Positions 13,542 through 33,051 are shown, counted from the stretch's first letter. The stretch: DNA of 64,000 bases from an uncultured Candidatus Saccharibacteria bacterium (GCA_964643135.1 CAZXPC010000001.1:103726-167725), one strand, 5' to 3'. The notes: generated by a model not told the origin, from the sequence alone. Made by a program: numbers and translations.

Positions 13542-16484
13542 TCATTGAACCTTAACCGGGAACTTGGTCACGATTATTCTGCCGTTGTGCCGGAATTCGC
13601 CGAAGATATAATAATTGCCCGGGGTTGGAAATTTGAAATTGGCCGCTTCAATATCAGGTCCGAATTTATCAGGCAAATAAAGGTGCGACTGGTGAATAGT
13701 CTCCCCTAAAAGCTGCCCGATAAATGAAACCGGCAACAACCCGTGCGTATGCTTGAATGCTCCCAGGTCATCTCTGATTAGGCTAATGTGCATCGGCACA
13801 GCCAAGTATGGATTGAGGTCAGTCACGGGCTGGCCGTCTTTCTCAATATGATAATCGAGTACTGATGAGTAATTAGAATTTAGTTTCGAGGTATTGAGCG
13901 TAACATCATAGCCATCGAAATTTCCTTTAAGAACTTGCACGTCGCTAAAATTATCGGCCGGTTTGGGAATATCTGCCACGTGACCGATATTTTCGTAGAA
14001 TTGGAATGAGAAAATCTGCGCCCGGACAGTAAAATCAACCGAAACCATGTAATAGCCGGCAGCCGGGAAAGTGTAGCGGACCGGGAAAGTTGCCGTTTTT
14101 AACATTTCCGGTGTAACCGGACCGGCATCTTCGACATGGACATGCGAAAAGCTAGAAAAATCGCTGTTTACGATGACCGCGTGCAATATCCGATCGTGAT
14201 CGATCACCAAATCTTGCACCGGATTCCCCTGCTTGTCTTTAAACTTAAAAGTTAAAATCGCGGGAACGCCCGGCTGGATGGTTTTGGGGGAGACGTCTAG
14301 CGTCGCACTCGCCTCACTGGGACGGATAAAATATTTAAACTCTCTTTCATCAGCAAAGTGATATTGGCCGAGCCCCACCCCTAAGGTGCAGCCGGGCACT
14401 GAGATGTCAGACGTGGCCTTCCCGGCTCGTTCGGGCGCGCTCTCATGCCAAATATCCAAAATATTAAAGTTCTCGCACTCTCTCTCGAAGCCGCTGATCA
14501 AAACTGATCCATGAGCCGCATGTCCGCCGAACCAGGACGTCAGCGTTATTGCCGCGAAAATCAAGAGAATTACCCAAGAGTCGCGATTAACAAAAGTGAT
14601 TTCCGAACCCCCTTCCCGAGGACCGTCCTCGGCGGCTGACTCGAGCTGTCCTCGGTAACCGGCCTGTAATTTGCTGCTGCGTTTATAGAGATAGCCCGCT
14701 GCGGCAAAAATAAACATAGCGGTTATGACGTTAACCATCTCAAAAATCCCAAAACTGCGCTTTTCGGAATTGGCGTTGCTCGCCTTTATCTCGGTCGGAT
14801 AATTTAGCTTAAAAGATGTGACCGCGTTATAGGCTTTTTCCTGCTCAGCCGAAATATCTACTTTCCAGTTGCCCGCCGGAGACAAGAGACTCATGGGGAA
14901 AAGGTAGCCGCCGTAGAAAATCTGCTTGAGAGGCGCGGAAATCGGACCGATCCCCTGTTCGCTATTAGTCAACGTTACGCTCGGGTTAATCACCGATCGC
15001 GCGGCGCCGCTTTGCGTGTCGGCAAAAGTGAGCAAGAATTGACCGTCGTCATAAGGAGCCTCGGTTAATTCTATTTTTACATTCTGACTCACCGTCTCTC
15101 TAAGGAAGCTGTAGTTTCGTTCGATCGGCGGAGTCGTAATAATCATGAGCGAGGTTATACCAAGAACAATGATGCCGGCGGCTGCCTCGAGCATCAAAGT
15201 TGCGTGGAGCCAATTGAGTTTGCCTTTGGTTAACTTTGGTTCGATGTAAAACTCATGAAAAAGCCGCAAGCCGAGCAGGATAGCCGCAAAAATACTTAGC
15301 GCAATAAAGGTTTTGCCCCAGTCGGTTATAAGAACATTCGAAAAAGACTTAAGATGCAGCCAAACAACATAAACGCCCGTAACGCCGGCGATGGCGAATG
15401 AAACGTTGGCGACAGTCGAGAAAGAAGTTAGGCAAAAAGCCGCCATATTGATGCTTTTGATTCTCCGAACTATGGGAGAAAGTAGGAACAGCATCGCGAA
15501 TAGTCCGCCGATCCAGATATCTTTGAAAAAGAGATGGATAAAGTTTACGGCCACCGAAAAGTCGGGCGCAAAGTTAGATGCTGCCGCATGGCTGACCTTG
15601 GCGCGGGCGAGGTCAATCAGAGCTAAAACGATAAAAATGACCCATTCGGTTTCTATAATCTTATGACTCGCAAAAATAGATTTTTTTCTGAACTCAAAAA
15701 TGCCAACAACTAAAGCGGCGCCGACCATACGGTAAATCGTATAGAGCGCGGCGGTCGTGCTGAGGAAAGAAGAGAAAGCCTCTTGGAATGAAGTTTCCTG
15801 AAGATAGCTCAGATCATTGGCCTTATAGATCAAATACGATATGCCCCCCAAAAGAACTAAGACGAATCCGCCGATAACAGCCAGATTGAACCTTCGGCTG
15901 AAGATCGCGTCCTCTGCCGCGCCGATCCTGCCTGAATATTTCTTAGTCGGCCGCCAGATAAACGCGAGCACAATAAAGGAGCCAAGCAGGATCGCTTCGC
16001 CGATCATTTCGAGAGAAATCGCCGCCGCCTCAGGAATACTGGAACTGTGGACAATCTGGAATTCTTCGGAAGCGTTGCCCGCGCCGACCGGGCTCGCCGA
16101 TTTAACCGAAAAAATATAGGCGCCTTTGGTAAAGTGGCCGTCGTCGGCCGAAATAACATGCCACGAGACGGTATAACTCCCCTCCCCGCCGTCTTTAATG
16201 CCAATCGTTAGTCTGCGTTGATCGGCCGGGTCGGGCGAAGCCAGCCCCGGAGCGCCGTCTAAATTAACCTTCGAACCATCCGGACCAAAAACAGCTATGC
16301 CGGAGACTCTTGGCTCAACCCTCTCGCTGAAATCAATCGAGATTAAAGAAGGCGAAGCCTGCAAAAGGCTCGAAGCCGCCGGGCTGTATAAAACCGGGGT
16401 CGCATGCGCGCTTGCCCCGTGGATATTAGCCATCAAGGAAATTAAGAATGCCGCCCCGATTATTCTCTTCCAAATTTTTATCAT
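13542..16484 (-). CDS. Fused CopC-CopD copper-transport protein with two additional C-terminal extracytoplasmic His-rich domains (YcnJ-like, extended)
   Basis: Signal peptide then CopC domain (HATPVLYSPA ... YTVSWHVISADDGHFTKGAYIFSV), then about 8 TM helices (CopD-like). About 430 aa C-terminal region with two similar segments containing HVHVED and HTHG. ATGA overlap with the upstream gene; start set at MIKIWKR rather than the 1007-aa track ORF start. Confidence 0.7.
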   Translation of the reverse strand: MIKIWKRIIGAAFLISLMANIHGASAHATPVLYSPAASSLLQASPSLISIDFSERVEPRVSGIAVFGPDGSKVNLDGAPGLASPDPADQRRLTIGIKDGGEGSYTVSWHVISADDGHFTKGAYIFSVKSASPVGAGNASEEFQIVHSSSIPEAAAISLEMIGEAILLGSFIVLAFIWRPTKKYSGRIGAAEDAIFSRRFNLAVIGGFVLVLLGGISYLIYKANDLSYLQETSFQEAFSSFLSTTAALYTIYRMVGAALVVGIFEFRKKSIFASHKIIETEWVIFIVLALIDLARAKVSHAAASNFAPDFSVAVNFIHLFFKDIWIGGLFAMLFLLSPIVRRIKSINMAAFCLTSFSTVANVSFAIAGVTGVYVVWLHLKSFSNVLITDWGKTFIALSIFAAILLGLRLFHEFYIEPKLTKGKLNWLHATLMLEAAAGIIVLGITSLMIITTPPIERNYSFLRETVSQNVKIELTEAPYDDGQFLLTFADTQSGAARSVINPSVTLTNSEQGIGPISAPLKQIFYGGYLFPMSLLSPAGNWKVDISAEQEKAYNAVTSFKLNYPTEIKASNANSEKRSFGIFEMVNVITAMFIFAAAGYLYKRSSKLQAGYRGQLESAAEDGPREGGSEITFVNRDSWVILLIFAAITLTSWFGGHAAHGSVLISGFERECENFNILDIWHESAPERAGKATSDISVPGCTLGVGLGQYHFADEREFKYFIRPSEASATLDVSPKTIQPGVPAILTFKFKDKQGNPVQDLVIDHDRILHAVIVNSDFSSFSHVHVEDAGPVTPEMLKTATFPVRYTFPAAGYYMVSVDFTVRAQIFSFQFYENIGHVADIPKPADNFSDVQVLKGNFDGYDVTLNTSKLNSNYSSVLDYHIEKDGQPVTDLNPYLAVPMHISLIRDDLGAFKHTHGLLPVSFIGQLLGETIHQSHLYLPDKFGPDIEAANFKFPTPGNYYIFGEFRHNGRIIVTKFPVKVQ

Positions 16485-16999
16485 TGCTTCTTTTTCTGCC
16501 AGATCGATACCAGGATAGCAACTAAAACCATGATTATAGGAACCGCCAATTCGAGCGCCTGCCATGGATTTAAACCGGTACTCACCGGCGCCCCGATTTG
16601 GATCTGGAAAGAGGCGCTGGTGGCGCTTTTGTTGTCCTTAAAAATATTAACATCCATCGTATAAAGGCCGGCCTTCGGAAAAACAACCGTTAAGGCGGTG
16701 AACCCGTCCTGAGATTCGGGCAGATCCTTTTTTAGCAAATCGCCGCTGTCTGGATTCTTGATCTCAACCGCAACATGATCGAAAGAAAGATACTCGCGCG
16801 TACTGCTGGAGAGAAGATTGAAATCGAACTGGATTGGAGTGCCCGGCTCGGGCGCGGCGAATTGGTCGGTGCCGATATCGATAATGTACGGCCCTACGAC
16901 TTTTTCCAAACGCAAGCCCGCCAGACCGTTGGCCTCCGCCCCGTGGCCCGATAAGAATGTTAGCGTGAGAATAATTAAGCCAAGGGCAGCCTTCTTCAT
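16481..16999 (-). CDS. Secreted, C-terminally membrane-anchored beta-rich protein (possible YtkA/cupredoxin-like copper-handling accessory)
   Basis: Signal peptide, about 120 aa beta-rich domain, C-terminal TM helix (LAVPIIMVLVAILVSIW). Operonic between the YcnI-like and CopC-CopD genes. Function inferred from context only. Confidence 0.35.
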   Translation of the reverse strand: MKKAALGLIILTLTFLSGHGAEANGLAGLRLEKVVGPYIIDIGTDQFAAPEPGTPIQFDFNLLSSSTREYLSFDHVAVEIKNPDSGDLLKKDLPESQDGFTALTVVFPKAGLYTMDVNIFKDNKSATSASFQIQIGAPVSTGLNPWQALELAVPIIMVLVAILVSIWQKKKQ

Positions 17000-17002
17000 T
17001 GG

Positions 17003-17737
17003 TTAGGCCTTTTCTTGCGAATGAGGCTTCCTCGAAGTGAAAACCAATCCGATTGCAATAATTCCCAAAATTAACCCCCCGACGGCCAGATTTCTGGCGA
17101 AGTTGATATTGTTGGCCATCGCGATAACGTCATTCTGGGCGATCAGATTGTTTTGATTTAGATCGGCAGCGGTGTAAGCCGGCTCAGGAAAACCATAATC
17201 GCTTCGTCCGGCCGGGCATCCGAAAGCTCCGACTTTATGGACCCTCGTCACATTAGTCCCAACCGAAACTTGTGCCTTGTCTTCGGCCGTTTCCGAAAAA
17301 TCGCCTTGGACGCAGCTAAATTTTAAATCAACGGGCGCGCCCTCCAACTCTCCGAATATTCGATACGTATAGGTCGTCTCAACTGTCGGGATAAAGGCGG
17401 CGGTATAAGCCCCGGGGCCGGCTTCGTCTGACGGATCAAGGGAAAGCGTTCTGGCTTGGTCGCCGGCGCTCAATTCAACTTTTAGGGTGTCCTCGAGTCC
17501 GGTTACCGGCTCTCCGTTCGTAACGCCCGGACCGGCCACCCTGGTTACGGCGAGTTCCAGGCCAGATTTATCGTCAACCAAAACAGGCTCATTCAGCGAG
17601 CCGACTTTAAAATCATAATAGGTGTTGTTAACCTTAAAAGTATCGTGCTCGTGAGCGGACGCTGAGTTTATCAAGCCCAAAGTCATAAATAAGGACATAA
17701 GAGCGAAGGACGCGGCTAAAATAAGTTTAATTTTCAT
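17003..17737 (-). CDS. YcnI-like (DUF1775) copper-binding membrane-anchored protein
   Basis: Signal peptide ending SASA followed immediately by HEHD (mature N-terminal His as in YcnI). C-terminal TM anchor (GGLILGIIAIGLVF). First gene of the copper cluster. Confidence 0.55.
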   Translation of the reverse strand: MKIKLILAASFALMSLFMTLGLINSASAHEHDTFKVNNTYYDFKVGSLNEPVLVDDKSGLELAVTRVAGPGVTNGEPVTGLEDTLKVELSAGDQARTLSLDPSDEAGPGAYTAAFIPTVETTYTYRIFGELEGAPVDLKFSCVQGDFSETAEDKAQVSVGTNVTRVHKVGAFGCPAGRSDYGFPEPAYTAADLNQNNLIAQNDVIAMANNINFARNLAVGGLILGIIAIGLVFTSRKPHSQEKA

Positions 17738-17758: not shown

Positions 17759-18169
17759 CTACTTATTTAGCCAATAAACAGCTTCTTCGCGGCTAGAGAA
17801 CCAACTGACTCGCCGGTTGAAGGTTTTAATCAGGAAAAAAGCGAATTCCAGGATCGCATTCTGAAAGTCGGTGTTGCCCACGATAGCAATCTTGTTGATT
17901 TGCTTGTTCGCAGCCAGATCGCGGTAAACCTCGCCGCCTCCCTTGGAGACATAGCCCAACTTCCCCATAGGAGTGATATCGACTATGCAATTATAAATTT
18001 TGTCGGGCTTTAAGCTTAATAATCTCAAGCACTCGTCGCGAAATAGTTCGGCTTGGCGAGTGTTGCTCTCATCGTCGTACTCAGGAATCAGAAAAGCCAT
18101 GTTTAACAAACCTTCGGCATCATCGGCGGAAATGGTAAAAGTTTTTTTAAGATCGACATCCGAAGTCAT
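17759..18169 (-). CDS. Hypothetical protein, possibly STAS/SpoIIAA-like fold
   Basis: 136 aa. C-terminal [21 protein letters not shown]...SREEAVYWL resembles the STAS-domain C-terminus. Weak. Confidence 0.3.
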
Positions 18170-18201
18170 CTGTCCATTATCTCACAAATATCCCTAGAAT
18201 T
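18167..18201 (-). promoter_or_regulatory. Copy 2 (inverted) of the 35-bp promoter+ATG element; extended -10 at 18176-18184 (minus), 6 nt before the start codon of the 17759-18169 gene
   Basis: Reverse complement is identical to 8393-8427. Confidence 0.6.
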
Positions 18202-18232
18202 AAATAAAATCAATCTGGTGTATAATTCAAAT

Positions 18233-18784
18233 ATGGCCAAAGAAATCGCAGTATTCGGGGGCGGATGCTTCTGGTGCACCGAAGCGGTTTTTAAGGATCT
18301 CCGAGGCGTCACTGGAACGATGCCGGGTTATGCCGGCGGATCCAAGCCCGACCCGACTTACGAGGCGGTCTGCGGCGGAAAAACCGGCCACGCCGAAGTT
18401 ACTAAAATAGAATTCGACCCGTCCTTAATTTCTTTTGAAGATCTACTCACGGTCTTTTTCGCCGTTCACGACCCGACCACTTTAAACCGCCAAGGCAATG
18501 ATGTCGGTACGCAGTACCGCTCAATCATTCTCTACACGAGCGACAGCCAGAAAAAACAAGCCGAAGAATTTATCAGGAAGCTTGATCAAGACGAACCGGC
18601 CGCGGAGAAAACCGCGCCACGAGTGGTGACCGAGTTGAAGTCTCTCGATAAATTTTATCCGGCCGAAGATTATCACCGCGATTATTTTGCTAAGAACCCC
18701 AACCAGCCCTATTGCCAGTTGGTGATCAGCCCCAAGCTTAAGAAGCTAAAGGAGAGGTTTGGCGCGCTTTTAGCCAAAGAATAA
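18233..18784 (+). CDS. msrA: Peptide methionine sulfoxide reductase MsrA
   Basis: GGGCFWC active-site motif. Start set at the ATG ([14 protein letters not shown]); TATAAT (18221-18226) lies 6 nt upstream, so probably leaderless. Confidence 0.9.
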
Positions 18785-19030
18785 CCTCGGTCGTCTTCAT
18801 AAAATCTTTAGAAGTTCTTCATCTCCGATTCTTTACCATTAATGGTAAAGGTCGACTAGTAACCATTTAATATAAAAGTGAAAAAACTCATTAAGAAGAT
18901 TCTCACCGATAAAAAGGCGAGAAACGCTGAGGCGGCGGAAGCCTTTGCGCAGACCACCGCAGATGTAGGCGTGGCCTGGGACTAATAGCGCTTAGGACAT
19001 AAGTGTATTAGAATACGGAAGAATCCCAAA

Positions 19031-20446
19031 ATGATTTTTTTGTCTTTCTTGTACAATAAACTGATCGAGCCGAGATCCCAAAATGAAGATTCGGCGCGGC
19101 GAGAATTTATTTTGAATATCTTTCTCATTGCCTCAACGGTTCTTCTGTCTTTCGCGGTTTTCCTGGCTCTAAAAAGTTCTATTGTGAATGGCAAAAATTA
19201 TCAGGGGGATTCTCCTGTTTATGTCTTCAGTATCTGGCTGTTTTTTGTGCTGCTGCTCCTACTTTCAAGACGAGGATTCTTTAGGATAGTTTCCTACATT
19301 TTTGTAGGTGTATATTTCCTGGCGGTTTCTTACGGACTTTACCGTCTGGGAGTAGACCAGCCGGAAACACTCTTGGGCCTTGCCCTCGTGATTGTCATAT
19401 CCGGCGTGTTGGTAGGATCCAAATTTGCATTTCTAACCACCATTCTGTCTTCAGCGGTCTTGATCACTCTCGGATATCTGCAGATTGACGGAGTCTACAC
19501 GGTCCATTCGTATTGGAAAGACCTGCCGGCCAAGAAAACGGACGCTATTATTTTTTCCATAACTTTGGCGATAATCGCCATAGCTTCCTGGCTTTCCAAC
19601 CGAGAAATTGAAAAATCTCTCCGCCGGGCCCGAAAATCAGAAACTGAGCTCAAGAAAGAGCGCGACTCACTCGAGATCACAGTTCAGAGAAGAACCAAGG
19701 AACTTAAAGAAGCTCAAGCGGAGAAAATGTCCCAGCTTTATCGCTTTGCCGAATTCGGCCGGCTCAGTTCAGGCATGTTCCACGACCTTATCAATCCCCT
19801 TAACGCTGTTTCTCTGAATATGGAGAAAATAAAAAGCAGAGAAGCGTCGAGCTACGTCGACAAGGCAATCAGCGCGGCGCAGAAATTAGAAGAGATGGTT
19901 GGGGCGGTGCGTAAACAGCTGAACCGGGAAGAGAATAGGAGCCTCTTCTCCCTGAATAAGGAGATCGAATACGTCATCGATGTCCTTTCACACAAAGCCA
20001 AGAAGGCTCATGTGATAATAAATTTCTCATCGGAACACGAGATCCAAATCTTCGGAGACGCCATAAAATTTAATCAGGTAGTTCTCAACTTGATCGCGAA
20101 CGCTATTGATTCTTATCCGCCCGCGACTGGCAAAGGCGGCGAAAGAACTGTTTCAGTTACGATGCGCCAAAACCAAAACAACATCACTTTAGAAGTAAAA
20201 GATCGCGGCGCAGGTATACCTGAAGCCAACCTGAATAAGATATTTGAACCTTTCTTCACAACCAAGCCAGAGGGGCAAGGCATAGGCCTGGGCCTTTCGA
20301 TGACCAAGCGAATCATTGAAAAAGATTTCGGCGGAGATATCAGCGTTCAAAGCAAGATCGGCAGCGGCGCAGTTTTCACTATAAAAATTCCCCTAAAAAA
20401 TGAGGCAGCAGCGAGTCCAAGCGAAGGTCAGCAGCGCGCTCAATAA
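19031..20446 (+). CDS. Membrane sensor histidine kinase (HisKA + HATPase_c)
   Basis: About 5 N-terminal TM helices, coiled-coil, H-box FHDLINPLNAV, N/G boxes (DRGAGIP; GQGIGLGLSM). Confidence 0.85.
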   Translation: MIFLSFLYNKLIEPRSQNEDSARREFILNIFLIASTVLLSFAVFLALKSSIVNGKNYQGDSPVYVFSIWLFFVLLLLLSRRGFFRIVSYIFVGVYFLAVSYGLYRLGVDQPETLLGLALVIVISGVLVGSKFAFLTTILSSAVLITLGYLQIDGVYTVHSYWKDLPAKKTDAIIFSITLAIIAIASWLSNREIEKSLRRARKSETELKKERDSLEITVQRRTKELKEAQAEKMSQLYRFAEFGRLSSGMFHDLINPLNAVSLNMEKIKSREASSYVDKAISAAQKLEEMVGAVRKQLNREENRSLFSLNKEIEYVIDVLSHKAKKAHVIINFSSEHEIQIFGDAIKFNQVVLNLIANAIDSYPPATGKGGERTVSVTMRQNQNNITLEVKDRGAGIPEANLNKIFEPFFTTKPEGQGIGLGLSMTKRIIEKDFGGDISVQSKIGSGAVFTIKIPLKNEAAASPSEGQQRAQ

Positions 20447-22367
20447 TGGATTGAGGTTTTTAGCCGGCGAACAGGAAAAAGACGGCAGCTTCATGTGCCT
20501 CGTGTCGACTAAATTAGATGACTATAGCCAGGCTAAGACAGTACCGGCGATCGTCCCCACTAATATTGTTCTGTCGTCGCTTATCCACATCGAGAGCAAT
20601 CTCAGCGCCACTATTAAAAAGAAGGCGGCTGGTTTTTTACTCGGCGAGCGAAACGAATATTGGTCGTTCAACTATTGGTTCAAAAAGTCTAATTGGTTTA
20701 AGAAAGAACCCTATCCCGATGATCTGGACGACACCTTTTGCGCTCTCTCCGCTCTCTATGAATATAAGCCGGGCTTATTTAACGGCGAAGTCATGGCCAA
20801 GATTGTGACTATGCTCACCTCAGCTGAGAAGCAGGAAGGCGGACCTTATGATATGTGGCTCGTTCCCGAGGAGGGCCGAAGCACGTGGAACGACACCGAC
20901 TTAGTCGTGAACAGCAATGTGGCCTTCTTCCTCGCGCTTCAAGATATTTCTTTGCCGAAGGTCAACGCATTTATCGAAAAATCGATCGACGAAGAGGACT
21001 ATGAGTTTCCCTATAACAAAATTTATCCGGCCGTCTATTTCATTTCGAGATTCTATAAAGGAAGAAAAACGGACCGTATGATAAAACTTCTCCTTTCTAA
21101 ACAAGAGCAAAACGGCAAGTGGGAGAATCCCCTTCGCACTTCTCTAGCGATCTCAGCGCTGATAAATTTATCCGGTCATAAATATCAAGCCGAGCTGGAG
21201 AAAGGCATCGAATATCTATTACGAAATCAAAACCGTGACGGCGGCTGGAAGCCCGCATCTTTCTATTTTCAAATGAGAACTTCAAAGAAAACTCTCTATG
21301 CCGGGTCAGCCTCCATCACCACCGCTTTATGTTTGGAAGCGATCAACAAGTGGCAGAATAAGTTCAAGGCGCCCAAAATAGCCGTCCCGAAAAAAGAGAG
21401 AGCCGTGAAGGCAGCCGAAATATATGAGGCAGCCTCTAAAGTAGTCAAAACTAGATTTTCAACTTGCGATTCTGATCTAAGGAGAGAAGCTTCAAAAGTA
21501 GTCGCGAAAACACTGAAAGGCGACCGGGACAAACAGATCGTGCTGCTCCCCTACTTTTTTGCAGCGGCTCTACGGGAGTCCAGCCAAAAAATCATCGCAA
21601 AAAGAGATTTTCTGACCAACCTCGGAGCGGCCAACACATTCGGATGGATAGCCTACACTATTTACGATGATTACTTCGATGGCGAGAGCGGCGCTAAATC
21701 GCTGGCACTTCTTTCGGTTGCTAACGTGGCCCTGCGGGAGTCATCTGAGATATTCGGCAATATTCTGCCGCCCAGGGACGGCCTAAAGAGTGCATTTGCC
21801 GAATTTTCCAAGAAAATATTCGACACTATAGACGGCGCCAATGCCTGGGAAATCAACCACTGCCGGGGCGAAAAGCTGCCTGATTACGGCAATTATGCGC
21901 AGCTGGCGGAGAAGTCACTGGGACATTCGCTGGGGCCTATGGCCATCCTCTTCGCGCTCGGCTACAGAGAAAACTCGGCCGAAGTTCAAACTATGATGGA
22001 CTTCTTCCGTCACTACCTAATTGCGCGCCAACTGAATGACGATGCTCATGATTGGGAAAACGACCTGAAACGGGGCCATATCAACGCAGCCGCGATCCAA
22101 ATACTTAAGAAAATCAAGATACTCCCAGGCCGGCCTTCAGATAAACAACTCGGAGAACTGCGTAAATTATTTTGGGCCGATGCGGTGGTTCAGGTATGCA
22201 ATGATATTCTAAAACACGCGCAAATGGCCAGGAATAGCGTTGGTAGGTCGGCCCTCATCAAAGATGTATCTCTTTTCGAAAATTTGCTCGCGCCAATCGA
22301 GGAGTCGGCTCTAAAAGCGCTTAAGGAACGCGAAGAAACAATCAAGTTCGTCAAATCCTATCGATAA
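20400..22367 (+). CDS. Terpene-cyclase-like two-domain protein: N-terminal alpha/alpha-toroid with QW repeats and DxDDT motif, C-terminal helical domain with DDxxD motif
   Basis: QW-type repeats LRFLAGEQEKDGSF, EKQEGGPYDMW, LLLSKQEQNGKWEN, KGIEYLLRNQNRDGGWK. DDLDDTF (DxDDT). C-terminal AYTIYDDYFDGE plus acidic NDDAHDWEND about 120 aa later. 47-nt overlap with the kinase gene; start uncertain. Confidence 0.4.
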   Translation: MRQQRVQAKVSSALNNGLRFLAGEQEKDGSFMCLVSTKLDDYSQAKTVPAIVPTNIVLSSLIHIESNLSATIKKKAAGFLLGERNEYWSFNYWFKKSNWFKKEPYPDDLDDTFCALSALYEYKPGLFNGEVMAKIVTMLTSAEKQEGGPYDMWLVPEEGRSTWNDTDLVVNSNVAFFLALQDISLPKVNAFIEKSIDEEDYEFPYNKIYPAVYFISRFYKGRKTDRMIKLLLSKQEQNGKWENPLRTSLAISALINLSGHKYQAELEKGIEYLLRNQNRDGGWKPASFYFQMRTSKKTLYAGSASITTALCLEAINKWQNKFKAPKIAVPKKERAVKAAEIYEAASKVVKTRFSTCDSDLRREASKVVAKTLKGDRDKQIVLLPYFFAAALRESSQKIIAKRDFLTNLGAANTFGWIAYTIYDDYFDGESGAKSLALLSVANVALRESSEIFGNILPPRDGLKSAFAEFSKKIFDTIDGANAWEINHCRGEKLPDYGNYAQLAEKSLGHSLGPMAILFALGYRENSAEVQTMMDFFRHYLIARQLNDDAHDWENDLKRGHINAAAIQILKKIKILPGRPSDKQLGELRKLFWADAVVQVCNDILKHAQMARNSVGRSALIKDVSLFENLLAPIEESALKALKEREETIKFVKSYR

Positions 22368-22368
22368 A

Positions 22369-23052
22369 TTATCTTTGGAGGTCAATTTTGTAGCCCCGTC
22401 CTGGCACCGAATGGATAAGTTTTTTCCTAAAACCAACGTCGATCTTCTTTCTAAGATTTAAAACATGCGCTTCGATGGTATTTGAGAACAGATCCCCGTC
22501 GGAATTCCAGACGTGTTCCATAATCATCCCCCGGGACAAAACCCGGCCTTTGTTCCTCAAAAAATATTCGAGCAATATGAATTCTTTCCGAGTCAGATAC
22601 ACTCGTTTCTCGCCCCGCGTAACTGCCTGCTTCTGGGTATCAAGCCTGAGGTTGTCGATCGAGAGCTCCTCTTCTTTGATCTCCGGAGGCCGCCTCAGAA
22701 TTGTCCTAATCCGCGCCAGCAATTCTTTGAAGGAAAACGGCTTGGTCAGATAATCATCGGCCCCCACCATAAGCAGTTTTACTTTTTGGTCAACGTCGGT
22801 TTTAACCGAGAGCATCATGATCGGCGTCTGTTTCACCTTCTGCTTGCCGCTTTCCCGGATCGTTTTGCAGATCTCAAAGCCGTTCTTGCCGGGCAAAATA
22901 TAGTCGAGAATGATCAAATCATAATTATTGGTCAGCGCCAGATACTCGCCCTCTTCGCCGTTTTCCGCGGCATCCACGGCAAAACACTCCTCTTCGAGCG
23001 AAGATTTAAGAAAGTCCCTGATCTCGGCCTCGTCCTCAATAACAAGAATGCG
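22369..23052 (-). CDS. OmpR-family response regulator (REC + winged-helix)
   Basis: MRILVIEDE...DLIILDYILPGKNGFE receiver domain. C-terminal trans_reg_C (LTRKEFILLEYFLRNKGRVLSR...VPGRGYKI). Start moved to MRILVIEDE. Confidence 0.85.
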   Translation of the reverse strand, partial: RILVIEDEAEIRDFLKSSLEEECFAVDAAENGEEGEYLALTNNYDLIILDYILPGKNGFEICKTIRESGKQKVKQTPIMMLSVKTDVDQKVKLLMVGADDYLTKPFSFKELLARIRTILRRPPEIKEEELSIDNLRLDTQKQAVTRGEKRVYLTRKEFILLEYFLRNKGRVLSRGMIMEHVWNSDGDLFSNTIEAHVLNLRKKIDVGFRKKLIHSVPGRGYKIDLQR

Positions 23053-23166
23053 CATGGAAGCGATGTTTAAACTATAACTCATTATAGAAAAATGAAGAAA
23101 ATATAAAAGGCCGGCCGAAAACAAATCTTCATAATTATTTCATCTTGCCCTTCGATCCCAGACAAT

Positions 23167-23212
23167 CAAAAGATCCGCCTCGATAACTTCAGGGGGCGGA
23201 TCTTTTGATTTT
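23167..23212. terminator. Bidirectional rho-independent terminator
   Basis: Perfect 13-bp stem CAAAAGATCCGCC / GGCGGATCTTTTG with a 15-nt loop. T-runs on both strands. Separates the ATPase transcript from the regulator promoter. Confidence 0.6.
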
Positions 23213-23219
23213 AGGCAGC

Positions 23220-23291
23220 TTACATCGTGCAATCACACATTGGGCACTTCCCCATGTGTTTGTCATGAGGACAATTCGGACACTTTTCCAT
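23220..23291 (-). CDS. Putative 23-aa Cys-rich mini-protein MEKCPNCPHDKHMGKCPMCDCTM
   Basis: ATG...TAA ORF 43 nt downstream of the P-type ATPase stop and upstream of the terminator. 6 Cys + 2 His in CPxCP / CPMCDC arrangement. TATAAA box 5 nt upstream of the ATG, no SD. Coding status unproven. Confidence 0.3.
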   Translation of the reverse strand: MEKCPNCPHDKHMGKCPMCDCTM

Positions 23292-23333
23292 AGTAATTTA
23301 TATTTTTTAATAAGGCGACCTTTGACTCGTTTA

Positions 23334-25892
23334 TTATATCATTTTGAGACGATCCCTAAACTTGGCATACATTAATTTGATGACTTCATTCATGAATAAG
23401 TAAGCGATCAAGATTCCTCCTATAATCTCGACTTGATTAATATCAAGGGCTACAAAATGGAACAGCTGGCCCAGCGGCGGGTAAAAAATCAGCGCAGCTC
23501 CAATGAAACAGGAAAGAATGGAGAAGACGATCATGTTGACAGCGGGAATTCCTCCGCGATAAATCGGCAAGAGCGTGCGCAACGATAGGAAGGCCAGCAC
23601 TTCCTGGAAAACACTGAACAAAAACCAGCCCGACTGGAGAACGCTTTCCCCGTACGAGAAGAATGATCTGAAGAAGATGAAGTCAAAAGGAACGCTTAAA
23701 AGGCCGAAGAGAATTATAAAAATATAGAGATTCCGAAGGTCGTATTTCTGAGGCTTCTGCATTTCTGCCTCGGGCACATTGTCGAGCGAAATCGTCACCA
23801 TGGGCAAATCGGTGATGAGGTTCAGTATCAAAATCTGGACGGAAAGCATCGGCAGAAACGGCAAAAGGAAAGATGCAATCACCATCGTAAAAAAATTTCC
23901 GACGTTGGCCGCGAAAGTAGTCCGGATATATTTAATGACATTGGCGAATATTTTTCGGCCCTCCTCAATCCCCCGCCCGATCACGATCAGCTCGCTTTTT
24001 AGGAGCACAATGTCGGCGGCATCCCGAGCTACGTCCGAGGCATTATCGACAACCAGGGCTAGGTCGGCGATCTTCAAGGCCGGCACATCGTTAAAGCCTT
24101 CGCCCAAAAATCCAACGGTGTGGCGCTTCTTTAACGACTCAATAATCAAGTATTTATGGTTGGGCATAGTCCGGCCGAACACATTGTACTTATCGACGGC
24201 GACGAGCCTCTCATTTTCGGTCATTTTTTCGAATTCTTCGCCGGCTAAGACATCATGAGGGTCAGCGATAAGGCCCAGCTGATGCGCCACCGCGCCGGCC
24301 ACCTCGTTGGAGTCGCCGGTAACAATTTTAAGCTTTACGTTAAGCTTATTGATCAGCTGGGCGGCGGCTTGCGAGGTTTCTTTAAGAGGATCGGTGAAAG
24401 AAATCATGCCGGCGAAAATCAACCCCTGAGCTTCTTCTTTCTTCAAATCAAGAGATCCTCCTTGGCCTGCGGTTTCTTTAAAGCCGATAGCAATGGCCCG
24501 CTCTCCTCTTTCGCCGGCCTGTTTAAACCAGGCCAGAGCCTCATCTTTAGTTTCTTGGCTGATTTTATCTGTTTTGCCCCCGATCCCTAGCGAACCTACC
24601 GAAGACTCAAGAATAATTTCCGGAGCGCCGCGCGCGAGTAAAATCTGGCGCGAATCCATTCTATAAAGTGCTGAATTGACCTTCCTGATGGCATCGAAGG
24701 GCAGAGACTCCAAAAATTCGATCCGCTGCGCATCTTCAGCCATCTTCTTAGTGCCTACATTTAAAATTGCGGCGTCAAACGAGCCGTGCATTTTATTAAG
24801 CTTCTTGCTGGCGATAGAACTTACAAATGCCAGACGCAAAATCTCGGCGTGATCTTCGCCGAAATATTGGGCAATTGCCAATTTATTCTCGGTAATTGTG
24901 CCTGTCTTGTCCGTACAAAGAACATCAACGTTGCCGAGATCTTCCAGCGCCGTCAATCTCTTGATAACGACGCTGTTCTTGGCCAGAATCAGAGAGCCTT
25001 TAGAAAAAGCGAGAGTAGCGACCAGAGGCAGAGCTTCAGGAACCACGGCGACGACCAACGCAACAACGAAGACAAAAAACCCCAGATCAATGTGTCCAAC
25101 TGTGATGAATTTGATCAGGAATATCAACATAGCGATTAGGAAAAAAAGAAAAGTGGCGAACTCCCCGATCTTTTTCAAATTAACTTCGAATTTGCTCGGA
25201 CGCTCGATAGAGTTCAATTTCTCGAAGATGCCGGCGAAATAAGTGTGCTCACCCGTTGCGATAACGACCGCTTCGCCCCAGCCCCCGATGACACTCGAAC
25301 CGGAAAATCCAAGATTGCGGGCGTCCAAATCATTTTCGATCGACTCCGAAACCGGCGCAGAATTTTTAGGAACCTCCATCGATTCGCCGGTCAAGATCGA
25401 TTCATCAATGGTTAAATTCCTGGTTCGCAGGAATCTGACGTCGGCCGGTATCAGATCTCCCTCTTCCAAGAAAATGAGGTCGCCGGGGACGAGGTCTTGG
25501 GTGTTCATCTTTTTGATCTCATCATTCCTTTTGGTCCGAACATAACGAGTCAGGAATTTGCGTAAATTGAAGACCGACTTCTCCGCGTTGAACTCCTGGT
25601 AGAAACCCGACCCGACATAGATACAGATAAACGCGAAAATAAAAGAAGCGTCCAAGATTTCCCGGGTGATGAGATCAACGGCGGCGGCGAAAAACAGCAG
25701 GTAGATAAAGAAGGATGTAAATTGCCTTAAGAGAATACCCTTCCAATCAGGCTTTTTATACTCTATTAAATTCAATCCGTCTTTTTCGGCTCGAGTCTTG
25801 GCTTCAGCCGAGGAGAGCCCGTCCAGAGTCACATTAAAAGAGCGCAAAACTTCTTCGCCGGATTTTGAAAAGTAATCCTTGTATTTGAACAT
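23334..25892 (-). CDS. Cation-transporting P-type ATPase (P2/P3-type, Ca2+/Mg2+-like; not heavy-metal type)
   Basis: DKTGTITEN phosphorylation motif, TGES, PEALPLVAT in M4, GDGFNDVPALK hinge, 10 predicted TM. No CPC motif or N-terminal metal-binding domain. Confidence 0.85.
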   Translation of the reverse strand: MFKYKDYFSKSGEEVLRSFNVTLDGLSSAEAKTRAEKDGLNLIEYKKPDWKGILLRQFTSFFIYLLFFAAAVDLITREILDASFIFAFICIYVGSGFYQEFNAEKSVFNLRKFLTRYVRTKRNDEIKKMNTQDLVPGDLIFLEEGDLIPADVRFLRTRNLTIDESILTGESMEVPKNSAPVSESIENDLDARNLGFSGSSVIGGWGEAVVIATGEHTYFAGIFEKLNSIERPSKFEVNLKKIGEFATFLFFLIAMLIFLIKFITVGHIDLGFFVFVVALVVAVVPEALPLVATLAFSKGSLILAKNSVVIKRLTALEDLGNVDVLCTDKTGTITENKLAIAQYFGEDHAEILRLAFVSSIASKKLNKMHGSFDAAILNVGTKKMAEDAQRIEFLESLPFDAIRKVNSALYRMDSRQILLARGAPEIILESSVGSLGIGGKTDKISQETKDEALAWFKQAGERGERAIAIGFKETAGQGGSLDLKKEEAQGLIFAGMISFTDPLKETSQAAAQLINKLNVKLKIVTGDSNEVAGAVAHQLGLIADPHDVLAGEEFEKMTENERLVAVDKYNVFGRTMPNHKYLIIESLKKRHTVGFLGEGFNDVPALKIADLALVVDNASDVARDAADIVLLKSELIVIGRGIEEGRKIFANVIKYIRTTFAANVGNFFTMVIASFLLPFLPMLSVQILILNLITDLPMVTISLDNVPEAEMQKPQKYDLRNLYIFIILFGLLSVPFDFIFFRSFFSYGESVLQSGWFLFSVFQEVLAFLSLRTLLPIYRGGIPAVNMIVFSILSCFIGAALIFYPPLGQLFHFVALDINQVEIIGGILIAYLFMNEVIKLMYAKFRDRLKMI

Positions 25893-25947
25893 CTTGATGT
25901 CTAAATTATATGTGAAAAAATCGAATTAACGAAATCGATGATGTATA

Positions 25948-27501
25948 ATGATAGCTATGAACGCTCCGAAAAACTTTTGGATCATCCTCGCGGGAACTGC
26001 CGGTTTGGCCTTGATAGCCTTTTTAATTTATAAGGCTAACACGGTCTCGGTTACCCAGGCCGCCTATACGGTCGCGAACCAGGATGTCCGGGAAACAGTG
26101 CTTGCGACCGGCGCCGTTACTTCAGAATATGATTTAAACCTAAGCTTCAAAAATAGCGGCCGGCTCGACAAGATCAGCGCCGCGGTGGGAGAAAATGTTA
26201 AAGCCGGAGCCCGGCTCGCCATACTCGACGAGAGCGATGCGAACATAGCAGTGGCTAAAGCTACCGCCAGCTTGGCGAGCGCGGAAGCGAGCTATACCAA
26301 GCTTGCAGCCGGCTCTTCTGCGGAGGAAATCGCCGTTGCCCAGGCCGCAGTTTCGAGCGCCCAGGTGGCTCTGGACAACGCGAAAAAGAATTATGACATA
26401 GTCGTGAGCCAGCAAAATGTGGCAGTCAAAAATGCTTACTCGGCGCTTTTGAACTCGGGGCTCACGGTCATCCCCGCTGCTAACAATCATTCTACCGGCA
26501 CGGTCACCCTAAGCGGAACCTACACCGGCGCTCAATCAGGATCATACACCATAACCGTTTTTGCGTCCGGCATTAATGATATTAATTTTGAAATAAAGGG
26601 GCTGGAAGACGTTCCCGGCCGCGTCAATAGAGGAGCCTTGATCCCTTTCGGAACAAAAGGTCTCTCAATCACCTTCAGCAGCAGCGGAGTATTCAACTAC
26701 AACGATCAATGGACGGTGGCTATTCCCGATACTAGCGCCGCGAGCTATGTCTCAAATTATAACGCTTATCAAACTGCGCTTCAGAACCAAAACCAGGCCG
26801 TCGCCTCGGCATCGAATGCTATCTCGACCGCGCAAGCCGCCTTAAATGAGGCGCAGGCAAAGCTCAATCTCCAAAAGGCGCCTCCGCGAGCGGAAGATAT
26901 TGCGGCCGCGCAAGCCACAATCGCAACAGCTAAAGCGGCCCTGGATTCAGCTCAGAATGATTACAACAATAATATAATTTTTGCGCCGCTTTCAGGGACC
27001 ATCGGCAGCGTGGATGCCAAAATCGGAGAGAATGTCGCGGCGGGCCGAGCGATTATCACTCTTTTGAACAAGAGCCTGCTCCACGTTGAATCAAATATTT
27101 CTGAATCTTCAATCGCGAAGGTTGAAGTTGGCCAAGATGTCGACATGACCTTGGATGCGCTTTCCCCGGACCGGCATTTCAGCGGCAAAATAATTTCTAT
27201 CGACCCCGCCTCAACGGTTGTCTCGGGCGTTATAAACTATCGCGTTTTATCTTCGATCCCGGCCGACCCTAATATCCGGCCCGGCATGAGCGTCAACATG
27301 ATGATCGTGATTTCTGACAAGCCGAATGTTCTGGCTGTTCCCAACCGCCTCATCAGGAATATTAACGGCCAGAAAGTCGTGGACGTTTTGAAGAACGGCC
27401 AGGCGGTAGAAACCGAGATTACAATCGGAGCGACCGGCGACAGCTTTACCGAAGTCACTTCGGGTCTGCAAATCGGGGATCAGATAGTTTCATCTAAATA
27501 A
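25948..27501 (+). CDS. Efflux transporter periplasmic adaptor subunit (HlyD/MacA family)
   Basis: N-terminal TM anchor, long Ala/Gln-rich coiled-coil hairpins, C-terminal beta-barrel domain. Directly upstream of a MacB-type ATPase and FtsX-like permease. Confidence 0.75.
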   Translation: MIAMNAPKNFWIILAGTAGLALIAFLIYKANTVSVTQAAYTVANQDVRETVLATGAVTSEYDLNLSFKNSGRLDKISAAVGENVKAGARLAILDESDANIAVAKATASLASAEASYTKLAAGSSAEEIAVAQAAVSSAQVALDNAKKNYDIVVSQQNVAVKNAYSALLNSGLTVIPAANNHSTGTVTLSGTYTGAQSGSYTITVFASGINDINFEIKGLEDVPGRVNRGALIPFGTKGLSITFSSSGVFNYNDQWTVAIPDTSAASYVSNYNAYQTALQNQNQAVASASNAISTAQAALNEAQAKLNLQKAPPRAEDIAAAQATIATAKAALDSAQNDYNNNIIFAPLSGTIGSVDAKIGENVAAGRAIITLLNKSLLHVESNISESSIAKVEVGQDVDMTLDALSPDRHFSGKIISIDPASTVVSGVINYRVLSSIPADPNIRPGMSVNMMIVISDKPNVLAVPNRLIRNINGQKVVDVLKNGQAVETEITIGATGDSFTEVTSGLQIGDQIVSSK

Positions 27502-31658: not shown

Positions 31659-32534
31659 CTATTTTATACTACCGTCTATCTTCAGAGCCGCGCTGCCGGT
31701 AAGAGGTACGCCGTCGGATGAAACAGCGGCATCCGCGCCAACCTGTTCTTCGGCGGCTGCGGGGGCCAGTTCGGCTCCCCTTAGGACTTCGAGCTGGTTG
31801 ATGAGAGTGCCCGAAACAATAACTTCAGTTGCCGGAGCCTGTTCTGCCCCAATCACAGCCTTAGCTGAAATCGCATCATCACTATTAATAGTAGTTGTCA
31901 CCGGAAGAGTATCAGATGTCGTAGGAGCCGGTGAAGCGGCGCGGGCCGTCAAGATCCCCTTAAGAACTTTGGCGTGAGCTTTGATAGCGGCCTCAAAATT
32001 TGAACTGACCGCTACAGCCGCAGCAGCATGATTGCTCGCTTTGATCGCTTCGACAGTTTTTACCGCCTCGCTGGACTGAACTTCAAAATTCGCTTTTACT
32101 TCGGCTTCGGTTCTGGCATCCAGCCGGCCGGCGGCGGCCAATTGCTCCGCTTCTTCCAGCCTCCTCGTCGCAAATTCTGTCTGAGCCTTTGCCTTAGCTT
32201 CAGTGCTAAGAGACAATGCCACCCGGGCTCCCTCAGTCACGTTCTTAATTGGATATAAAATATCTCCCGGCAACGAACTTTCGGCGGCAAAAGCAGCAGC
32301 TCCCCCTCCTCCCAACAACAGCATCACGGCTAAAAATATTGGCATAAATTTTAGTTTAATTAATAATTGTTTCTTGCCTGTCTGCCGGGCCAAATCAGCA
32401 TTTCTTACAGGTCCGTTTTTAATAAAATACACAATATTCTCTCGGATCAAAGATTTTTTTGATTCTGAAAGCCGGACGCTTTGGGCTTCCCGAATCATCT
32501 CTTCAAAGATCTTATGATTGTTGTTATTTGTCAT
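31659..32534 (-). CDS. Putative anti-sigma factor (single-pass membrane protein, DUF5667-like)
   Basis: Short cytoplasmic N-terminus, one TM (FMPIFLAVMLLLGGGGAAAFAA), Ala-rich extracytoplasmic region. Overlaps the ECF sigma gene by 11 nt. Confidence 0.5.
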   Translation of the reverse strand: MTNNNNHKIFEEMIREAQSVRLSESKKSLIRENIVYFIKNGPVRNADLARQTGKKQLLIKLKFMPIFLAVMLLLGGGGAAAFAAESSLPGDILYPIKNVTEGARVALSLSTEAKAKAQTEFATRRLEEAEQLAAAGRLDARTEAEVKANFEVQSSEAVKTVEAIKASNHAAAAVAVSSNFEAAIKAHAKVLKGILTARAASPAPTTSDTLPVTTTINSDDAISAKAVIGAEQAPATEVIVSGTLINQLEVLRGAELAPAAAEEQVGADAAVSSDGVPLTGSAALKIDGSIK

Positions 32535-33051
32535 TGGCTTTTGTATTTAATAGCTCTCTCATTTGCTTCAAGGCCCGGTTCAACCTAACCGAAACATTGT
32601 TCTCGCTCTCTCCGATCATTTGGCTTATCTCCTGGGGCGAGAATTCATTAATGTATCTCATGACGATCACTTCCCGATATTTATGATCCAGACCGTCTAG
32701 CAGTTTCAGCATATCTTTAGCTTCGATGCCGGTTTCGATAACCGACGCGCTATCCCGGCCTCCCTCCGAAGAACTTAAGTCAAAGCCCTGATCTCTCAAT
32801 TCATCCAGCGATAGAGCCTTCTTGCGCCGATATTCATCAATAATCATATCGTTGGCAATCTTGTAGAGAAGCGCTCTCAGATTTTTCACTTCGTTGCCCT
32901 TCTCGAGATATTCCCAGGCCTTGATAAATATATTTTGGACCATATCTTCAGCCGTAGACCGATCTGAGATACGGAAATAACAATGCCTGAAAAGAGCATC
33001 CGAAAAATCCTCGTAGGTTGTCAAAAAATCCTGTTCGTTAATGGTTTTCAT
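32524..33051 (-). CDS. ECF-subfamily RNA polymerase sigma-70 factor
   Basis: Region 2 (DMVQNIFIKAWEYL) and region 4 HTH (VIVMRYINEFSPQEISQMIGESENNVSVRLNRALKQMRE). Confidence 0.85.
   Translation of the reverse strand: MKTINEQDFLTTYEDFSDALFRHCYFRISDRSTAEDMVQNIFIKAWEYLEKGNEVKNLRALLYKIANDMIIDEYRRKKALSLDELRDQGFDLSSSEGGRDSASVIETGIEAKDMLKLLDGLDHKYREVIVMRYINEFSPQEISQMIGESENNVSVRLNRALKQMRELLNTKANDK

Follow-up and report, generated by a model that had tools for sequence, protein, structure and literature searches.

A two-domain terpene-synthase-like protein encoded in a conserved sensor kinase and response regulator operon of Patescibacteria

A 64,000-nucleotide stretch of DNA from an uncultured Candidatus Saccharibacteria bacterium (GCA_964643135.1, CAZXPC010000001.1:103726-167725; referred to here as the window) contains an open reading frame (ORF) for a protein of 655 residues, hereafter the synthase, in which an N-terminal β domain resembling class II terpene cyclases is followed by an all-helical C-terminal α domain carrying two acidic motifs. 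The gene lies next to those of a sensor histidine kinase and an OmpR-family response regulator, with which it forms an operon that is conserved across the phylum Patescibacteria. The explanation that we favor, and to which we give roughly even credence, is that the protein is a bifunctional synthase, coupled to a sensor, whose product is a cyclic polyprenoid and probably serves as a membrane lipid. What we infer within this explanation is its chemistry and its signaling link, that is, the catalytic activity, the substrate, the order of the reactions, the product and the signal read by the kinase.

The synthase ORF was called identically by an independent gene caller on two public contigs that encode an identical protein, and translation confirmed its extent and the positions of its motifs as given in an earlier reading of the window that had been made from the DNA alone (the sequence-only reading; all coordinates are in Table 1). 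AlphaFold2 modeled the full-length protein with a predicted local distance difference test score (pLDDT) of 92.3 and a predicted template modeling score (pTM) of 0.81; the β domain precedes the α domain as a single toroid, and there is no γ domain. In an alignment of 62 homologues sharing 42-67% identity with the query (column identity averages 42%), every member keeps D107, D108, D110 and T112 of the β domain and D423, D427, Q544, D547, H550, D551, W552 and D555 of the α domain, while D111 is kept in 61 and D424 in 54. Conserved to this degree, the motifs are under selection and do not occur by chance. Within the C-terminal half, 124 residues separate the two acidic clusters, in agreement with the spacing of about 120 in the sequence-only reading, and the second cluster (residues 544-555) can be read either as the QxxDDxxD of prenyl synthases or as a D-x3-D-x3-D triad on one face of a helix. 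The four QW repeats proposed in that reading were upheld in part: two are conserved, at residues 14-31 (with F for W) and 267-285, a third at residues 227-243 is QW-like in the query and some members without its Q being conserved, and the fourth, KQEGGPYDMW, belongs by family consensus to a conserved E..EGGPY.TW element instead. Two or three of the four therefore qualify.

When the synthase ORF was searched as a single sequence against Pfam, NCBIfam and the PDB, only sub-threshold matches carried by the QW repeats were obtained. Two of the Pfam families that had been suggested do match, but below their curated thresholds: SQHop_cyclase_C scored 25.1 bits (cut-off 26.1) and SQHop_cyclase_N 21.3 (cut-off 26.2), and TIGR01787 reached 31 against 323. 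The match to squalene-hopene cyclase (E = 4e-6) was carried solely by the QW repeats, and SQHop_cyclase_C was matched at E ≤ 0.01 by 33 of the 62 family members. A significant match to a solved protein emerged only with a profile built from the family, which hit the cyclase domain of the drimenol synthase AsDMS (PDB IDs: 9mhs, 9m7d) at E = 2.2e-10 over residues 14-310. In the profile alignment the PDDLDDT of the synthase lies on the PDDLDTT of AsDMS, and D110 is paired with D323, the residue that serves that enzyme as general acid in catalysis (PMC12232559), which bears out the earlier assignment of DxDDT as a class II cyclase motif. The aromatic residues F271, F308 and Y417 that line the AsDMS pocket align with V52 (F in the family consensus), with invariant Y92 and with invariant Y205, respectively. 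AsDMS binds the diphosphate of its substrate at the mouth of the pocket through an Arg/Tyr cluster of R368, R370, R415 and Y416 (PMC12232559); the arginines align with W163, D165 and P204, and the tyrosine with a variable position. Because these residues stand in place of the arginines, the β domain has no evident diphosphate site of the AsDMS type. Glycosidase toroids scored 21 or less against the N-terminal half. Together, the match to AsDMS, the aligned acid and pocket and the low glycosidase scores argue that the N-terminal half is a β-only class II cyclase domain which, judged by its sequence, has the acid and the pocket intact and does without the clamp by which AsDMS, the nearest relative of solved structure, holds the diphosphate.

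The predicted structure of the α domain has the isoprenoid-synthase fold, as the sequence-only reading had supposed of the C-terminal half, and is structurally far nearer to prenyltransferases than to class I cyclases. In sequence the domain is an orphan. Its profile found no match among PDB sequences, and the search against Pfam polyprenyl_synt (PF00348) proposed in that reading gave no match even at E ≤ 10. Pfam Terpene_syn_C_2 scored 20.8 bits (cut-off 23.7; best E = 2.6e-4), with 3 of 20 members matching at E ≤ 10. The second motif, D547-D-x-x-D551-x-x-x-D555, has the spacing of the class I motif (N,D)Dxx(S,T)xxxE, but Asp replaces both the Ser/Thr and the Glu.

For comparison with chain-elongating enzymes, a canonical reference set was assembled from 16 synthases, namely E. 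coli IspA (identical in sequence to 1rqj) and 15 operon-encoded enzymes, among which K45, R48, R95, K181 and K247 are invariant. The hhalign alignment of the α-domain profile with this set is co-linear but weak (probability 9%). It places D423-D427 on the first Asp-rich motif, D547-D548..D551 on FQxxDDxxD and A480-N481..E484 on GQxxD. The RRG that follows the first Asp-rich motif is deleted in the α-domain family, the Lys of KT lies on invariant S506, and the Lys of GK lies on a variable H/Q/R at position 560; the equivalent of GGKRxRP, counted by spacing from the first Asp-rich motif and not aligned, reads KQIVLLP. As the alignment is weak, this residue-level mapping of the basic residues is tentative, and so is the conclusion it suggests, that the α domain keeps the Mg2+/diphosphate-binding aspartates of the fold without the basic residues of a chain-elongating enzyme. 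An hhalign comparison with E. coli IspA alone (probability 0.8%) placed the first motif on the second motif of IspA and was discarded as meaningless.

The genomic context of the family was analyzed in 80 fetched loci. A kinase orthologue is found directly upstream of the synthase gene, on the same strand, in all 77 loci with upstream DNA, and in 68 of 70 when stricter criteria are applied. These orthologues match the kinase of the window at phmmer E values of ~1e-70 to 1e-150, compared with just 1e-7 to 1e-17 for other kinases in the same loci. In the window the 3′ end of the kinase gene overlaps the synthase gene by 47 nt. Across the loci, the distance between the kinase stop codon and the point where the aligned part of the synthase begins has a median of 11 nt and is no more than 150 nt in 72 of the 80 locus records scored (including L081-L083), with ~30 pairs overlapping. 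A regulator orthologue is adjacent in 53 of 61 informative loci, 49 of which have it upstream of the kinase (regulator-kinase-synthase) and 4 downstream, as in the window. There the regulator gene is convergent with that of the synthase and their stop codons are 1 nt apart (window 22365-22371); its likely start is the ATG at 23055, which gives 228 residues and matches the public gene call, while a TTG at 23124 would give 251. Regulator, kinase and synthase genes thus constitute an operon conserved across the phylum. The overlap with the kinase and the convergent OmpR-type regulator had both been described correctly in the sequence-only reading, and the two-component link that it proposed has become far stronger, the arrangement of kinase, cyclase-like gene and regulator that it suggested seeking in related genomes being present phylum-wide.

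The convergent layout of the regulator also occurs in two Colwellbacteria loci (L001 and L011) and in L045, and therefore looks like a lineage-specific relocation of the regulator. By hydropathy, the kinase has ~5-6 transmembrane helices within residues 1-190 and no large external loop; a juxtamembrane helix, HisKA and HATPase_c follow, and the conservation profile shows the juxtamembrane helix to be the most conserved part of the protein. A promoter and terminator scan of positions 18000-26200 returned no more sites than shuffled sequence did, with no terminator between the kinase and synthase genes and no terminator-like hairpin between the convergent stop codons.

The next most recurrent neighbor is a canonical polyprenyl synthetase (PF00348, E = 1.4e-57), which is located inside or beside the operon in 15 of the 80 loci, where we estimate that ~2 of 80 would be expected by chance. 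Its gene abuts the synthase gene downstream in nine loci, is convergent and adjacent in one, lies between regulator and kinase in four and is nearby in one. The four polyprenyl synthetases encoded between regulator and kinase (L009:382-1416, L028:3285-4334, L035:3295-4338 and L069:3230-4264) have FQIWDDxMN as their second motif, in place of the usual FQxxDDxxD/G, and SEDWLLIHDD before the first; they may represent a distinct subtype specialized for the operon.

Under the explanation that we favor, the synthase would be a soluble or membrane-peripheral bifunctional terpenoid enzyme. It would act on a prenyl diphosphate that another enzyme, a canonical polyprenyl synthase, supplies, in some lineages one encoded in or beside the operon, and a supply of precursors is plausible because Patescibacteria carry genes of the mevalonate or methylerythritol phosphate (MEP) pathway together with prenyl synthases (PMC6107057). 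The α domain would hold an allylic polyprenyl diphosphate by its Mg2+-diphosphate head and, given the apparent loss of the basic residues used in chain elongation, would most likely ionize or remove the diphosphate by class-I-type chemistry rather than add isopentenyl units. In the β domain, D110 of the DxDD motif would protonate the terminal C=C of the polyprenyl chain within the aromatic-lined pocket, leading to cyclization. We prefer the order α then β, as in the sesquarterpene route of Bacillus from YtpB to SqhC, because the β domain is without the diphosphate-binding arginines of its closest solved relative. The synthase gene would be co-transcribed and co-inherited with the genes of the multi-transmembrane kinase and the OmpR-type regulator, most likely as a sense-and-respond circuit in which the kinase responds to the condition of the membrane or envelope, or to the product, by adjusting how much of the cyclic polyprenoid lipid is made. 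A bolder proposal, which we advance tentatively as a possibility, is that the three genes make up a self-contained membrane-homeostasis module, the intramembrane kinase sensing the bilayer or the product and tuning the synthesis of a hopanoid- or sterol-like polyprenoid. In a stronger variant of this proposal the two domains may share a composite tunnel, with the α domain holding the diphosphate head of a molecule while the β domain cyclizes its tail.

Several points weigh against a bifunctional synthase of a membrane polyprenoid. A canonical prenyl synthase was not found within the 64-kb window, and the role of the product in the membrane is one that we purely infer. The close linkage to the kinase would fit a component of the sensing apparatus just as well. 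The fold assignment of the C-terminal half rests on predicted structures, and its sequence links to prenyl synthases (the probabilities of 0.8% and 9% given above) are non-significant. Finally, R446, R489, R543 and H550, conserved basic residues that are new in this family, could rebuild a diphosphate site or an isopentenyl diphosphate site.

Four other explanations were considered. The sequence-only reading had described a class II domain followed by a class I domain, and the reactions may be imagined in the same order, as in the copalyl diphosphate/kaurene synthases of plants or bacteria: the β domain would cyclize a substrate of the farnesyl or geranylgeranyl diphosphate (FPP/GGPP) type to a bicyclic diphosphate, which the α domain would then ionize to a hydrocarbon or alcohol. 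This is a possible order, not the best supported one, and we consider it unlikely. Its appeal is that both motif sets are invariant and that AsDMS, the closest solved relative of the β domain, cyclizes FPP with the diphosphate still attached, the diphosphate being removed afterwards by the second domain. The weak Pfam matches of the α domain are likewise to Terpene_syn_C_2 and never to polyprenyl_synt, and D547-x3-D551-x3-D555 mimics the spacing of the NSE/DTE triad. However, with W163, D165 and P204 at the positions of R368, R370 and R415, no diphosphate site of the AsDMS kind is evident in the β domain, and the modeled α domain resembles prenyltransferases far more closely than class I cyclases. 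If the α domain instead elongated a chain to an FPP/GGPP-type substrate for the β domain to cyclize, the protein would be a prenyltransferase-cyclase like fungal PvCPS. In favor of this, both Asp-rich motifs are conserved, the second being QxxDDxxD-like, and the window encodes no other prenyl synthase. We nevertheless regard it as improbable: the basic residues of GGKRxR, RRG, KT and GK, which in canonical enzymes hold the isopentenyl and allylic diphosphates, are not conserved (as judged from the weak alignment and from spacing), Pfam polyprenyl_synt gives no signal, and the canonical prenyl synthase that has repeatedly been recruited to the operon would be redundant.

We are no less skeptical of a role as a signaling accessory, in which the protein would bind a polyprenyl (di)phosphate, such as the pool of the cell-wall lipid carrier, and report it to the kinase, or would make a terpenoid in small amounts as a ligand for the kinase. 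Coupling to a single orthologous kinase is obligatory throughout the phylum, often with overlapping frames, the sensing segments of that kinase are all membrane-embedded, and both domains appear to lack the basic residues with which canonical enzymes bind their substrates, points that speak for such a role. Against this, the proton-donor Asp and both Mg2+ motifs are invariant down to ~34% identity, as catalytic selection predicts, and the acid of DxDD is not needed by a pure binding protein; a dedicated prenyl synthase in the operon also suggests metabolic flux and not sensing. It is very improbable that the protein has nothing to do with terpenoids and that its N-terminal half is a toroid of the glycoside hydrolase, lyase or LanC-like kind with incidental acidic motifs, an outcome that the sequence-only reading had named as contrary to its own proposal. 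Some members do have weak Pfam matches to Pec_lyase and TED_complement, but the partner domain has the isoprenoid-synthase fold and prenyl synthases recur in the operon, and the profile match to AsDMS and the low scores of the glycosidase toroids contradict this idea as well.

Among characterized proteins, the synthase is nearest to the class II cyclase fusions (AsDMS, PvCPS and the tridomain cyclase/synthases), yet it fits none of them, because it has no HAD domain, no γ domain and an α domain whose sequence places it with neither the canonical prenyl synthases nor the class I cyclases. AsDMS from Aquimarina spongiae, like the HAD-like drimane synthases/AstC, shares with it a single β-domain cyclase without γ that is fused to a diphosphate-handling domain, and is the only solved protein with a significant sequence match to the β domain of the synthase, its catalytic Asp and pocket aromatics aligning. 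The partner domain of AsDMS is a HAD phosphatase, however, whereas the synthase has an isoprenoid-synthase α domain; the cyclase domain is C-terminal in AsDMS (residues ~238-523) and N-terminal in the synthase family, the AsDMS motif is DxDTT where the family has the canonical DxDDT, and the phosphate-binding arginines are not conserved in the family. That a β domain alone can make a working class II active site is known from MstE (PMC12414744, PMC12232559). MstE (6sbb), which has DxD and acts on a prenylated aromatic acid, the "prenylcyclase" 6ij1 and the myxobacterial proteins 8paj/8pak are stand-alone enzymes of ~340 residues, in contrast to the β domain described here, which is fused to an α domain.

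The bifunctional class II/class I diterpene cyclase/synthases, namely plant terpene synthases (TPS) and five bacterial enzymes (DCSs; PMC11469919), resemble the synthase in having a DxDD cyclase part followed by a C-terminal α domain with DDxxD, but they are γ-β-α proteins with the class II site at the β-γ interface and an α domain of the class I cyclase type, whereas the synthase has no γ domain and a prenyltransferase-type α domain. Patescibacteria are mentioned neither in the 2024 survey, which reported these five tridomain enzymes as the first fusions of class II and class I from bacteria (PMC11469919), nor in a 2025 survey of triterpenoid cyclases. With the fusions of the 2024 survey all being γ-β-α tridomain proteins, the sequence-only reading was right to call a class II and class I layout of only 655 residues non-standard. 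PvCPS has a prenyltransferase-fold α domain fused to a class II cyclase, as the synthase does, but combines a β-γ cyclase with a canonical GGPP synthase domain, while the synthase has a lone β domain and an α domain without elongation-type basic residues. In the sesquarterpene pathway of Bacillus, a C35 chain undergoes first a class-I-like step, by YtpB (class IB), and then a class II step, by SqhC (PMC7839719). This pathway offers a functional analogy, in that a long polyprenyl diphosphate is ionized by an atypical α-fold enzyme and its far end is then cyclized, yielding a cyclic polyprenoid; YtpB and SqhC are two separate proteins, SqhC being β-γ, whereas the synthase is one polypeptide. We know of no two-component system linked to the YtpB/SqhC pathway. 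In the DesK-DesR-Des system, which governs membrane fluidity in Bacillus subtilis, a multi-transmembrane kinase without an external domain is encoded next to the lipid-modifying enzyme that is controlled. The enzyme in that case is a desaturase, and DesK and DesR belong to the HisKA_3 and NarL families, whereas the synthase operon has a HisKA-type kinase and an OmpR-type regulator; the analogy is one of logic only, and we claim no homology.

A search with the synthase scored 586 homologues at E ≤ 0.001. Among the best 120 of these 586, almost all are 606-765 residues long and cover 95-100% of the query, and one of 514 residues covers 80%. The α-domain profile, searched against 1.84 billion proteins, matched 1,716 clusters formed at 50% identity when the threshold was E ≤ 1e-3, and 1,182 when it was E ≤ 1e-30; with only 1,716 clusters found, the profile therefore does not reach the canonical prenyl synthase superfamily. 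Among the matches listed, the α domain is mostly at ~residues 325-655 of proteins of ~620-670 residues, and so in the same fused architecture. Apparent stand-alone C-terminal domains of ~370 residues start inside the last helix of the β domain (YAGS..TTAFCLEAL) and were rejected, as they look like truncated gene calls. One protein of 329 residues (P0137) consists of the α domain alone, begins with a Met of its own immediately ahead of the first helix, and may be either a split gene or a genuine stand-alone domain.

The family is encoded by 203 species-representative genomes, essentially all of them Patescibacteria. The 80 loci come from Colwell-, Parcu-, Pacei- and Saccharibacteria, Morani- and Doudnabacteria, and Microgenomates (Levy-, Davies-, Shapiro- and Roizmanbacteria). 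Many contigs with the operon are labeled "uncultured Gammaproteobacteria" (L004, L006, L012, L014, L020, L024 and others), and the oddly labeled records also include L054 and L040, with one 1.41-Mb contig given as Vitreimonas sp. and one as Methylomirabilota. These labels are probably wrong, since the contigs carry the same operon and encode proteins that share 36-53% identity with the query and are nested among matches from Patescibacteria. In public annotation the members are "hypothetical protein" or, rarely, "terpene cyclase/mutase family protein", and searches of the literature on Patescibacteria and the candidate phyla radiation turned up no account of the family.

If active, the synthase would represent a new terpene synthase architecture, an active β-only class II cyclase joined to a prenyltransferase-derived α domain, and would bear on how α, β and γ domains have been combined in evolution. 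Patescibacteria are regarded as nearly devoid of lipid biosynthesis, a picture that a phylum-wide terpenoid cyclase would revise. In one survey, squalene-hopene cyclase was absent from the phylum (PMC7306690). The dedicated sensor kinase and regulator would also provide a rare and testable two-component link to a lipid-type product in uncultivated bacteria. Should the membrane-homeostasis proposal be true, the module would be the sole endogenous lever on membrane properties for cells that scavenge lipids and are auxotrophic for fatty acids, and a new class of lipid biomarker would be implied.

Table 1. Features of the synthase operon and the adjoining gene (nucleotide positions in the window)
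Feature	Position	Strand	Remarks
Sensor histidine kinase	19031..20446	+	471 aa; HATPase_c E 3e-27, HisKA weak (Pfam)
Two-domain terpene-synthase-like ORF (synthase)	20400..22367	+	655 aa; without predicted transmembrane segment
N-terminal β domain	20400..21374	+	aa 1-325; putative single-domain class II (protonation-type) terpene cyclase α/α toroid
DDLDDTF	20718-20738	+	aa 107-113; checked by translation
DxDD(T) general-acid motif, D107-D108-L-D110-D111-T112	20718..20735	+	D110 = predicted proton donor
Interdomain linker	21375..21389	+	aa 326-330; sole segment with pLDDT <50 in the full-length model
C-terminal α domain	21390..22364	+	aa 331-655; all-helical isoprenoid-synthase fold, trans-prenyltransferase type (predicted structure); sequence orphan
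IYDDYFD	21660-21680	+	aa 421-427; checked by translation
First Asp-rich motif (DDxxD), D423-D424-Y-F-D427	21666..21680	+	C-terminal end of a long helix (predicted structure)
Second acidic motif, QLNDDAHDWEND	22029..22064	+	aa 544-555; checked by translation
OmpR-family response regulator	22369..23055	-	Response_reg E 2.9e-27, Trans_reg_C E 5.6e-23 (Pfam)
P-type ATPase, nearest Mg-translocating type	23334..25892	-	522 bits against cut-off 611; adjoins regulator

The P-type ATPase next to the regulator had been noted in the sequence-only reading as a Ca/Mg-type enzyme downstream of the synthase. It is present, with the Mg type as its nearest relative, and five further loci (L021, L045, L060, L066 and L010) encode related ATPases no more than a few kb from the operon, but because it is nearby only sporadically we reject it as a part of the conserved unit. 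In five loci, ABC exporters of ~590 residues with fused membrane and ATPase domains are encoded ~1.1 kb downstream of the synthase, as tandem pairs in three (L003:5000-8570, L005:3180-6702 and L010:9128-12632) and also at L011:8925-10529 and L068:8991-10805. These could be exporters or flippases of the product, or unrelated.

Elsewhere in the window, the gene of an ECF-type sigma factor (32524-33051) precedes that of a DUF5667 protein (31659-32534), both on the minus strand (31659-33051). In a Levybacteria locus a DUF5667 gene lies ~2.7 kb downstream of the operon (L083:12732-13524), which may be a coincidence. On the other side of the operon, a minus-strand ORF of 1,007 residues (13542-16565) contains CopC and CopD domains as well as a long extension at the C-terminus that matches no family. 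Two further minus-strand ORFs (16481-16999 and 17003-17737), which have hydrophobic N-termini and no Pfam match, precede it. An MsrA gene (18218-18784) adjoins this group, giving a neighborhood of the copper and oxidative-stress type just upstream of the operon.

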